From the NCBI RefSeq assembly GCF_988242995.1, contig NZ_OZ547043.1: DNA of 64,000 nt; one strand, 5' to 3'. Position numbers and translations under genes: made by a program. This document shows, piece after piece, positions 10,849-30,490 of the stretch. The notes beneath the pieces are model-generated. The model searched no databases. It worked only from the letters and a program-made list of their open reading frames with translations, and had not been told where the DNA came from. Each line of letters begins with the position of its first letter. Position 1 is the stretch's first letter.

Positions 10849-11694
10849 TTATTTCTCACTATCGACCAGGCCGCGCACAAAGGCACGCTGCATCACTAAA
10901 ACAATCACTACTGGTGGGATCAGGGTTAACAACATCGCCGCCATCACCGAGTTCCATTCCGTGGTGCCTTCGCCTGTGGCGATCATCCCTTTAATCCCTG
11001 CCACGGTGGTGCCGAGATCCACGTCGGTAATAATCAACAACGGCCACAAATACTGGTTCCAGCCGTAAATAAAGGTGATCACAAACAGCGCCGCCAGATT
11101 AGTTTTGGAGAGCGGAAAAACGATGTCGCAAAAGAAGCGCATTGGTGACGCACCGTCGATCCGCGCCGCTTCCACCAGCTCATCCGGCAGCGTCATAAAG
11201 AACTGGCGGAAAAGAAACGTGGCGGTCGCCGAGGCCATCAGCGGCAGCGTTAAACCGGCGTAGCTGTCGAGCATTTTCAGATTGGCGATCACTTCCACCG
11301 TCGGGAAAATACGCACTTCAACCGGCAACATCAGAGTGATAAAAATCATCCAGAAGAAGAGGTTACGTAGCGGAAAACGAAACCAGACAATGGCAAATGC
11401 CGAAAGCATCGAGACGGTAATTTTGCCGAGCGTAATGCTGAACGCCATCACAAAGCTGTTAAGCAACATCCGCCAGAAAGGCGCACTATTCGTGCCTACC
11501 CCGTTCACCCAGATGTTGTGGATGTTTTCCAGCAGATGTGTGCCGGGGATGAGCGTCATCGGCGCGGCGTAGACGGCCTGTTTATCCAGCGTCGCCGCGA
11601 CAAACGCCACGTACAGCGGGAAGAGGATCACCGCGATCCCGAGGATCAGCATGGTATGGCTGAATATCGTCAGCCACGGACGGTTCTCAATCAT
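10849..11694 (-). CDS. ugpE: sn-glycerol-3-phosphate ABC transporter permease
   Basis: 281 aa polytopic membrane protein, MalG-like; synteny in ugpBAECQ. Confidence 0.95.
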
Positions 11695-12578
11695 TGGTAA
11701 CGCACCTTGCTTTCAACATAGCGGAACTGCACCACCGTCAGCACGATGACGAGGAACATCAACACCACCGACTGCGCGGCAGACGAAGCCAGATCCAGTC
11801 CGGTAAAGCCTTCGCGGTAGATCTTATAAATCAGCGTCGTGGTAGCCTGAACCGGCCCGCCGGACGTAGCGGCGTCGATCACCGGGAAGGTGTCGAAGAA
11901 GGCGTACACCAGGTTCACCACCAGCAGGAAGAAACTCACCGGAGCGATAAGCGGCAGAGCAATCTTAAAGAAGCGGCGAATCGGGCCTGCACCGTCGATG
12001 GCTGCGGCTTCGATCAACGAACGGGGAATGGATTGCAGCGCGGCATAGAAGAACAGAAAGTTGTAGCTAATTTGCTTCCACACCGAGGCAAACACCACCA
12101 GAAACATCGCCTGACCGCTGTTTTGCGCGTGGTTCCAGTCGTAGCCGAACTCAGCGAGAAAATGGGTGATCAGCCCGCGACCAGGGTTAAACAGGAAGAT
12201 CCACAATACGGCGGCAACGGCGGGTGCCACGGCGTAAGGCAGCAGCATTAAGGTTTGATAGAAACGGCTGCCGCGCACGATGTACTCCACCAGCGCCGCG
12301 AAGAACAGCGATACCAGCAAACCGCTGACGGTGACAAAGGTGCTGAATTTTATCGTCGTCCAGAAGGAGTCGAGATAATAGCTGTCATGAAACAGCGTGA
12401 CGAAGTTATCCAGGCCGACAAACTGGCTGGAGAAACCAAATGGATCGACGCTTTGCAGCGAGTACCACAACGCTTCGCCCGCAGGCCAGATAAAAAAGAT
12501 AACGGTGATGATGAGCTGCGGCGCGACCAGCAAATAGGGCAGCCAGCGCGAGCGGAACACCGGACGGGATGATGACAT
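11691..12578 (-). CDS. ugpA: sn-glycerol-3-phosphate ABC transporter permease
   Basis: 295 aa polytopic membrane protein; 4-bp overlap with ugpE. Confidence 0.95.
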
Positions 12579-12589
12579 AGTTAAACTCT

Positions 12590-12740
12590 TCGTGTTGTGT
12601 TCCCCTCACCCCGGCCCTCTCCCCAGAGGGGCGAGGGAGAAAGGCGGTGCATACTTTCCCACCGAGCGAAGTTGCAAACCGACACGGCACCTGGATACCA
12701 CGCCGATCGGTCCCCTCTCCCTTTGGGAGAGGGTTAGGGT
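12590..12740. repeat. GC-rich palindromic intergenic repeat (boxC-like), two inverted copies
   Basis: cccctcaccccggccctctcccc...ggggcgaggg and its inverted partner gggagagggttagggtgaggg seen directly; a related copy occurs at about 30420-30490. Confidence 0.65.
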
Positions 12741-12753
12741 GAGGGTAAGAGAA

Positions 12754-14070
12754 TTAAGACTTCGTAGACTGCTCAAAGCGGCGCAGTAACTGATTCCCAC
12801 GCTCAACGGCGGTATCCAGCGCCTGCTGTGGCGTCTTCTTACCGGTCCACACGCTCTCCAGCTCTTCATCCACAATCACGCGGATCTGCGGCATGTTGCC
12901 CAGACGCAGCCCTTTGGTGAACGGCAACGGCGGCTTATTCAGCATCTGACGCGTCGCGGTATCCGCCCCTGGGTTTTTCTCATAAAAACCCTGCTCACGG
13001 GTCAGGTCATACGCCGCTTTGGTGATTGGCAGATAACCAGTTTTCTGATGCCACTCGGCAGCGTTTTCTGGCTTCGCGAGGAAGTCGAGGAACTTCGCCA
13101 CACCCGTATAAGTTTCTTTATCTTTACCCTGCATTACCCACAAGCTGGCTCCGCCGATAATGGCGTTTTGTGGCGCATCTTTCGCATCGGCGTCGTAAGG
13201 CATCATGCCTACGCCGTAGTTAAATTTGGCGTACTCGCGAATGTTGGCGAGAGAACCGGAAGAGGCGGTGGTCATCGCGCAATCACCGTTATAGAACTTC
13301 TCAGTGGATTCATCCTTACGCCCGACGTAGCTGAAATCGCCCTTCTTGTTCATCTCTTCGAGCATAGCGATGTGTTTCACCTGCTCCGGCTTGTTGAACT
13401 CCAGCACCGCGTCTGTGCCGTCAAAGCCGTTGTTTTTGCTGGCAAACGGCAGACCGTTCCAGGCGCTAAAGTTTTCCAGTTGGATCCAGCCCTGCCAGCC
13501 GCTGGCGTAGCCGCACTTCATGCCGGAGGCTTTCAGTTTTGCGGCATAGTCCGCCAGATCCTGCCAGGTTTTCGGCGGCTGTTCCGGGTCTAAACCGGCT
13601 TTCTTGAAGGCGTCTTTGTTGTAATAGAGAACGGGAGTCGAGCTGTTGAACGGCTGGGAGAGTAAGTGGCCGGTTTTGCTGTCGGAGTAGTAGCCTGAAA
13701 CCGTCGGCACAAACTGCGACTCATCGAACTGAATCCCCGCCTCTTTAAACACGTCATATACCGGTTTAATGGCTTTCGACGCCATCATGGTGGCGGTGCC
13801 AACTTCATAAACCTGCAAAATAGCAGGCGCGTTGCCGGTACGAAATGCGGCAATCCCCGCGCTTAAATTCTGTTCGTAGTTGCCTTTATAGGTCGGTACA
13901 ATTTTGTAATCCGGGTTTTCGGCGTTAAAACGTTGGGCCAGAGAATCCACCTCTTTACCCAGTTCCCCTTCCATAGAATGCCAGAACGGAATGGTCGTCA
14001 CTGCCTGTGCATTCCCCATTAACGCCAGTCCGAGCGCCAGTGCTGAAGCTGTATAATGTAACGGTTTCAT
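12754..14070 (-). CDS. ugpB: sn-glycerol-3-phosphate ABC transporter periplasmic binding protein
   Basis: 438 aa with signal peptide ([23 protein letters not shown]); first gene of ugp operon. Confidence 0.95.
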
Positions 14071-30419: not shown

Positions 30420-30490
30420 TCGCAACATTGAGCGCGATCGGTCCCCTCGCTCCTCTGGGGAGAGGGTTAGGGTGAGGGGAAAAGGCGGCA
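30420..30490. repeat. GC-rich palindromic intergenic repeat (boxC-like)
   Basis: cgatcggtcccctcgctcctctggggagagggttagggtgagggg closely resembles 12690-12740. Confidence 0.65.

Follow-up and report, generated by a model that had tools for sequence, protein, structure and literature searches.

Layout of the ugpB–ugpA spacer

The window, by which we mean the whole stretch of 64,000 nt analysed here (contig NZ_OZ547043.1 of RefSeq assembly GCF_988242995.1), carries ugpB and ugpA on its minus strand, and the intercistronic spacer between the two genes contains two copies of the repeat BoxC, also called TM_ECO, in opposite orientation. Gene names were confirmed by the annotation that RefSeq gives for the corresponding, 100% identical stretch of Escherichia coli strain NRZ14408. 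The features of the locus, together with a third BoxC copy located elsewhere in the window, are as follows.

11691-12578, minus strand: ugpA (name confirmed by the RefSeq annotation of NRZ14408)
12579-12753, minus strand: ugpB–ugpA intercistronic spacer, BoxC allele, 175 bp (from ORF coordinates and the NRZ14408 annotation)
12586-12591, minus strand: putative Shine-Dalgarno sequence of ugpA, GAAGAG, 7 nt before its ATG (12578-12576; from the sequence)
12602-12637, minus strand: BoxC/TM_ECO copy of type B with one mismatched triplet (from the sequence, the consensus regular expression and a 3-mismatch match)
12638-12712, minus strand: core between both BoxC copies, 75 bp, with a small predicted hairpin of its own
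12713-12746, plus strand: BoxC/TM_ECO copy, perfect type A (from the sequence, exact matches and the regular expression)
12754-12775, minus strand: ugpB 3′ end that accompanies the BoxC allele, ...GAG CAG TCT ACG AAG TCT TAA (K-12: GAG AAA TCG...)
12754-14070, minus strand: ugpB (name confirmed by the RefSeq annotation of NRZ14408)
30444-30479, plus strand: third BoxC copy, single, type A, downstream of zntA and before the next gene; corresponds to K-12 TM_ECO no. 16 of PMC4666352

A sequence-only reading of this DNA had placed two ccctctccc/gggagaggg-type copies in opposite orientation inside the ugp operon, and both were indeed present, at 12602-12637 and 12713-12746. The distance between them, given there as about 50 bp, is in fact 75 bp (12638-12712), and the right-hand limit of 12740 that had been set for the element cuts off the last block of the type A copy, which ends at 12745/12746. 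The minus-strand copy reads CCCTCGCCCC TCT GGGGAGAGGG CCG GGGTGAGGGG; it stands in sense orientation in the ugp mRNA and corresponds to the 3′ half of the hairpin described below. The plus-strand copy reads CCCTCTCCC TTT GGGAGAGGG TTA GGGTGAGGG T and contains a 9-bp perfect local hairpin, as detected by a repeat search; its reverse complement corresponds to the 5′ half of the mRNA hairpin and starts 8 nt past the ugpB stop codon. The same kind of search delimited inverted arms at 12595-12636 and 12712-12753, each 42 nt long, 71% complementary and separated by 75 nt, and the core that lies between the two copies begins with the BoxC-associated extension GGGGACCGATCGG. Sub-motifs of 21 nt from BoxC were matched two and three times in the window against 0.01 matches expected from shuffled sequence, which shows that the matches did not arise by chance. 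Small ORFs that overlap the spacer were set aside as mechanical products of the GC-rich repeats.

Assignment to the BoxC family

The literature on the BoxC/PIT family runs from the work of Bergler and Bachellier in the 1990s to that of Hoyne et al. in 2000. The more recent survey by Holder et al. (2015, PMC4666352) equates the elements that it calls TM_ECO with the BoxC of the 1990s and with the "potential intrastrand triplex" (PIT) elements of Hoyne and Maher, gives them the consensus CCCTCNCCC N3-6 GGGNGAGGG N3 GGGNGAGGG, and types them by their second loop, TTA denoting type A and CCG type B. According to the same survey, E. coli K-12 MG1655 carries 23 copies, including five sites with inverted pairs, each of which consists of one type A and one type B copy (PMC4666352). 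Both ugp copies fit this consensus when searched as a regular expression, and their second loops are TTA in the plus-strand copy, hence type A, and CCG in the minus-strand copy, hence type B. The label "boxC-like" used in the sequence-only reading was therefore well chosen, and it is practically certain that the feature in the ugp spacer is the known enterobacterial repeat BoxC (PIT, TM_ECO), present as one type A and one type B copy in inverted orientation.

The ugp pair shares with the published elements the consensus, the inverted A + B pairing, the intergenic position and membership of a multi-copy family. Its closest full-length relative was the lldD–trmL pair of K-12 (TM17+18), with 71% identity over 146 nt; in that pair, too, the G-rich ends face outward on either side of a long spacer, a layout shared by the phnK–phnL BoxC pair of strain 789. 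The five K-12 pairs have spacers of 16-59 bp, whereas the ugp pair has one of 75 bp with a core that is unique to the locus. By spacer alignment, the ugp operon of K-12 is free of BoxC, and the part of the 56-genome table of PMC4666352 considered here contains neither "ugp" nor the exact type A sequence. Published work already covers the family, both of its types and the inverted pairs, and ugp is not among the K-12 copies; what the ugp spacer adds is therefore a new locus, the kind of element being known already.

A census bore out the repeat character of the motif, which was found at other intergenic sites as well. Of 5,426 complete E. coli genomes searched by BLAST with a 176-bp query, 5,396 had matches, at 60,522 places in all, with a median of 13 per genome and with 12 in strain NRZ14408; just 41 of all these places were plasmid-borne. 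Within the window itself, the third copy at 30444-30479 carries one C-to-T change in block 1 relative to K-12 no. 16, and its local hairpin is weakened.

Predicted structure of the spacer transcript

The sequence-only reading had also suggested that the pair could form a large RNA secondary structure, and folding agreed with it. Folded as ugp mRNA, that is, as the minus strand, the spacer reached a minimum free energy of −83.9 kcal/mol compared with −64.8 ± 4.6 kcal/mol for dinucleotide shuffles (z −4.1), and none of 200 shuffles was as stable. The predicted hairpin spans about 145 nt, from 8 nt past the ugpB stop codon to 24 nt before the ugpA AUG, and its outermost blocks, CCCUCACCC and GGGUGAGGG, pair with a probability of 0.99-1.0. 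The single long hairpin (−83.9 kcal/mol) has a close competitor at −82.9 kcal/mol, in which an unchanged outer stem carries two local hairpins. With 60 nt of coding sequence on each side (295-nt context), the hairpin was retained, and the putative ugpA Shine-Dalgarno sequence lies outside it. A pairing of CUCUU (12747-12751) with GAAGAG was predicted in the fold of the spacer alone and in about 5 of 14 BoxC-class spacers; because it was absent from the others and was lost in the longer context, Shine-Dalgarno sequestration or translational coupling was dropped as a reading.

Downstream of the hairpin, the transcribed strand continues with GAACACAACACGAAGAG and has no U-run. A terminator scan found no intrinsic terminator in 12579-12753 on either strand, and a promoter scan found no promoter-like site in the spacer, so that both an internal promoter and an intrinsic terminator were ruled out there. 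It is accordingly highly improbable, in our judgement, that the hairpin serves as a terminator or attenuator lowering read-through into ugpAECQ, or as a protein-binding site. The high stability and GC content of the hairpin and its place immediately behind a gene would fit such a role, but the T-run is missing, the scan was empty, and ugpA has no predicted promoter of its own, so that the transporter would lose an essential part if termination here were strong. In published tests summarised in PMC4666352, these elements likewise showed no terminator activity.

A search of 12000-13300 against Rfam families at a permissive threshold gave sub-threshold matches only, the best overlapping one being whalefall-1, whose 17.7 bits (E = 0.15) fall short of the threshold of 37. 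For annotation, the ugp spacer should be treated as an allele that carries inserted repeats of a known family, not as a new regulatory RNA.

BoxC and REP alleles of the spacer in E. coli

In K-12 (strain J53), O157:H7 and NU14, the spacer is 97 bp long, contains two inverted REP-type palindromes and has no alignable similarity to the spacer of the window. Across complete E. coli genomes, the BoxC allele was found in 317 of 5,426 (about 6%), among them NRZ14408 and PCN033, and the REP spacer, at a coverage of at least 80%, in 5,105 (94%), so that 5,422 of the 5,426 genomes have one of the two alleles. In this strain and in about 6% of E. coli, a BoxC pair thus replaces the REP pair at the same position. 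The two have in common their place in the operon and their origin from dispersed palindromic repeat families, and the REP pair, too, is predicted to form a single large hairpin, which extends from about 10 nt after the ugpB stop to about 22 nt before the ugpA start (−49.4 kcal/mol, z −6.9, for the K-12-type 97-nt spacer). They differ in repeat family and in length (97 nt for REP, 175 nt for BoxC) and share no sequence similarity; the REP/BIME consensus (GCCGGATG...CATCCGGC, GGCCTAC) was absent from the window spacer by regular expression, and no sequence in it could be aligned with the K-12 REP spacer. A third spacer allele was seen in "E. coli" SCPM-O-B-8794 (L009), where it is 100 nt long and carries a REP pair nearer to those of Citrobacter (L019, L032) than to that of K-12.

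When the 75-bp core was searched alone by BLAST, its only matches were single ones in the same 317 genomes, and in 316 of the 317 it was at least 95% identical to the core of the window. The sole markedly diverged core, with 86.7% identity, belongs to E. coli strain N3 (L008) and represents either real divergence or an assembly error. The composite of 157 bp was rejected as a single mobile unit, since its core occurs only at ugp and the corresponding spacers in other species are either duplicated or without relation to it; if anything here is mobile, it is the BoxC element of about 35-56 bp. Inverted arms of the kind seen in MITEs are present, but there is no flanking direct repeat and the core is not repeated. 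Similarly, the ugp pair resembles ERIC and the Correia/NEMIS elements of Neisseria in its terminal inverted repeats, variable core, insertion into a transcribed spacer and long RNA hairpin, and differs from them in that no target-site duplication is visible at its ends and its core is not repeated elsewhere. REP elements are mobilised by RAYT transposases; we know of no mobilising enzyme for BoxC.

The coding flanks of the spacer show 2-4 differences per 100 nt relative to K-12 on both sides, so that the surroundings are about 97% identical, and the import of a larger foreign segment was rejected on this ground. Mismatches with K-12 cluster in the last 20-80 nt or so of ugpB, with seven in the first 100 nt from the spacer. 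From the low divergence of the flanks and this small cluster at the ugpB 3′ end, it follows that the exchanged tract comprises approximately the spacer and the very end of ugpB. The C-terminus of UgpB reads EQSTKS in the window and EKSTKS in K-12, and the CAG codon responsible accompanies the BoxC allele; its association with this allele and its frequency in many BoxC-class species indicate that the exchanged tract reaches slightly into ugpB.

Such a whole-spacer replacement, with a replaced tract that extends about 20 nt into ugpB, also bears on the view favoured by Holder et al. (PMC4666352), in which the repeat has a role at the level of DNA through triplex formation and local instability. 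At ugp, one G-rich copy on each strand could give rise to an intrastrand purine-motif triplex, or the pair to a cruciform, and such structures would hold up replication and favour local rearrangement; what would then matter is the polymorphism of the spacer, not gene regulation, and an action of this kind would be compatible with one through RNA. The consensus TM_ECO oligonucleotide forms an intrastrand purine-motif triplex in vitro, and more sequence change has been found around TM_ECO loci than around control sites (Holder et al., PMC4666352). Switches between the BoxC and REP classes, moreover, recur within genera, as set out below. Against these points, the allele is stable, 316 of 317 spacers being at least 95% identical to that of the window, and E. 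coli shows two alleles, not a spectrum of deletions. On balance we consider an action at the DNA level unlikely at this locus.

Recurrence of the two spacer classes across Enterobacteriaceae

We surveyed other species by a protein-guided scan of one genome per species, which located 80 ugpB loci and allowed the spacer to be extracted from 79. A BoxC pair in the layout of the window was present at 13 of the 79 loci and in at least eight genera, namely Pseudocitrobacter, Superficieibacter, Phytobacter, Pluralibacter, Enterobacter, Kluyvera, Leclercia and Buttiauxella. In mRNA sense, the layout of this class runs through CCCTCACCC-TAA-CCCTCTCCC-loop-GGGAGAGGG, a variable spacer and CCCTCNCCC-loop-GGGAGAGGG-CCG-GGGTGAGGG to a last stretch of about 20-30 nt with a ribosome-binding site of the GAG type. 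The type A copy came first and the type B copy second in 10 of the 13 orthologous pairs. The sequence between the copies varied in both composition and length, from 0 to about 210 nt, the lower extreme being Enterobacter soli, where the pair forms a single 83-nt hairpin.

In four spacers (L012, L026, L027 and L049), the inter-copy sequence was tandemly duplicated, the modules being shortest in L049 (about 36 nt) and longest in L012 (about 110 nt). Each duplicated module carries a degenerate half-BoxC, and the spacers concerned reach up to 308 nt.

A REP-like pair, accompanied by a CAGGAA ribosome-binding site, occupied the spacer at about 24 of the 79 species loci, including those of E. albertii, Klebsiella and Citrobacter. 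Both classes were found within each of Escherichia, Pseudocitrobacter, Enterobacter, Leclercia and Buttiauxella. Nearly all BoxC- and REP-class spacers folded far better than their shuffles, with z from −3 to −11, and more distant genera such as Pectobacterium and Dickeya had short, unstructured spacers.

Two further spacers contain both repeats. In the 155-nt spacer of a Leclercia adecarboxylata metagenome-assembled genome (L035), a BoxC-like hairpin, CCCTCATCCCAACCCTCTCCCACAGGGAGAGGG, lies inside the loop of a REP pair, and this spacer may represent a transitional state between the two classes. In the pstA–pstB spacer of K-12 (L091, 168-349), a BoxC copy and a REP pair stand side by side, from which it follows that the two repeats can coexist as well as replace each other.

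Constraint on the hairpin arms

Across the 13 species with a BoxC pair, the 36 core positions of the arms were 94-100% identical to those of the window, compared with 54-67% for the adjacent third-codon positions of ugpB. We also aligned the core blocks by hand and examined covariation in this small sample of seven distinct rows, in which 99.2% of the cells were paired, the one broken cell being that of L026. Three pairs were changed on both sides, against a mean of 0.6 in shuffled alignments, and this number was reached by 4 of 500 shuffles. The compensatory changes were A-U to U-A in L024 and L047, and C-G to U-A in L020 and in L021. The change in L021 pairs the 5′ inner block with the distal and not the local G block, which favours the long hairpin over the fold with two local hairpins.

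Neither the conservation of the arms nor the compensatory changes need reflect selection on RNA, for both can arise through gene conversion among the dozen or more copies of the repeat, and re-insertion or template switching within a DNA palindrome can also produce them. The main rival to a role in expression is, correspondingly, that the pair is a neutral or selfish repeat without any effect on ugp expression, kept uniform by gene conversion or repeated insertion and forming a hairpin as a by-product. BoxC occupies many unrelated intergenic sites without functional bias (the median of 13 places per genome noted above), the spacer between the arms shows no constraint on length or sequence, ranging from 0 to about 210 nt and being tandemly duplicated in some cases, and the allele is carried by just 6% of E. 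coli. The presence of BoxC and REP together in one spacer, as in K-12 pstA–pstB and Leclercia L035, likewise suggests simple accumulation. What such neutrality would leave unaccounted for is that a structured element of one family or the other sits at this junction in nearly every sampled species of Enterobacteriaceae, at similar distances from the stop and start codons, that the arms are far more conserved than synonymous sites, and that changes in the arms are mostly compensatory. We regard neutrality as a serious possibility, although its chances in our view lie clearly below even.

A proposed role in ugp expression

REP hairpins that follow binding-protein genes, for instance that between malE and malF, have the classical role of protecting the mRNA upstream of them. 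For the malE–malF hairpin, the stabilisation of the upstream mRNA segment was reportedly shown by experiment by Newbury et al. in 1987. This hairpin resembles the ugp pair in being intercistronic, in lying directly after the binding-protein gene of an ABC transporter and in having no terminator U-run; it differs in repeat family, and its function is experimental, whereas for the ugp pair we infer one.

We propose, as a possibility that falls only a little short of an even chance, that the BoxC pair acts as an mRNA hairpin in the manner of REP pairs after binding-protein genes. Transcribed within the ugpBAECQ mRNA, the C-rich 5′ half (CCCUCACCC-UAA-CCCUCUCCC) would pair with the G-rich 3′ half (GGGAGAGGG-CCG-GGGUGAGGG) and close the hairpin of about 145 nt. 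RNA polymerase would read through the hairpin, which has no U-run after it, and the folded RNA would block 3′-to-5′ exonucleases, with the result that the ugpB segment would outlive ugpAECQ. Through this prolonged life of the ugpB segment, more of the periplasmic binding protein UgpB would be made than of the membrane subunits. The BoxC pair and the REP pair would, on this proposal, be interchangeable cassettes with the same geometry.

The sequence-only reading had suggested that the structure influences the expression of ugpB relative to the genes downstream. Such a role is backed indirectly by the presence of an unrelated REP hairpin with the same geometry at the same junction, by the conserved arms and by the lack of a terminator T-run, and by analogy it is plausible that the hairpin would tune UgpB relative to UgpAEC. 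Published findings on BoxC count against this mechanism. The distance of the repeats to ORFs and their position in operons followed no trend, and no link to gene regulation was found (PMC4666352). According to the same paper's summary of the functional study by Hoyne and Maher, the elements had neither promoter nor terminator activity and left RNA polymerase unaffected. Repeats of this kind may accumulate in spacers that tolerate them. Taken jointly, the identity of the element as a BoxC pair and its action as an mRNA hairpin constitute the explanation that we consider best overall, and we lean slightly towards it.

A more far-reaching proposal is that the BoxC and REP pairs are non-homologous but equivalent hairpin cassettes, kept by selection as a trans-genus polymorphism, which would confer different UgpB:UgpAEC ratios or mRNA decay and would tie BoxC to phosphate starvation. 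The last of these ties was proposed because BoxC copies lie inside or just after several operons of the Pho regulon, namely ugp, pst (L091, 168-349) and phn, the latter represented by the phnK–phnL spacer of strain 789 (L006, 1183-1358) and by a copy after phnP in K-12 (L090, 199-344). This coincidence was noticed post hoc and may reflect only that these are long transporter operons with roomy spacers. We consider the proposal as a whole quite unlikely.

Implications for the BoxC family

BoxC has been known for about 30 years without an accepted function, and the ugp junction offers a natural allele-swap experiment. To the existing descriptions of the family, our analysis adds the alternation of BoxC and REP pairs at a single operon junction, seen among E. 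coli genomes as well as between genera. In E. coli, one or the other of these pairs occupies the junction in surroundings that are otherwise about 97% identical, and the same choice recurs from genus to genus. If exchanging one cassette for the other proved neutral but deleting it altered ugp expression, BoxC would gain a role in mRNA like that of REP; if neither the swap nor the deletion changed expression, the view of BoxC as neutral or as a source of DNA instability would be strengthened.
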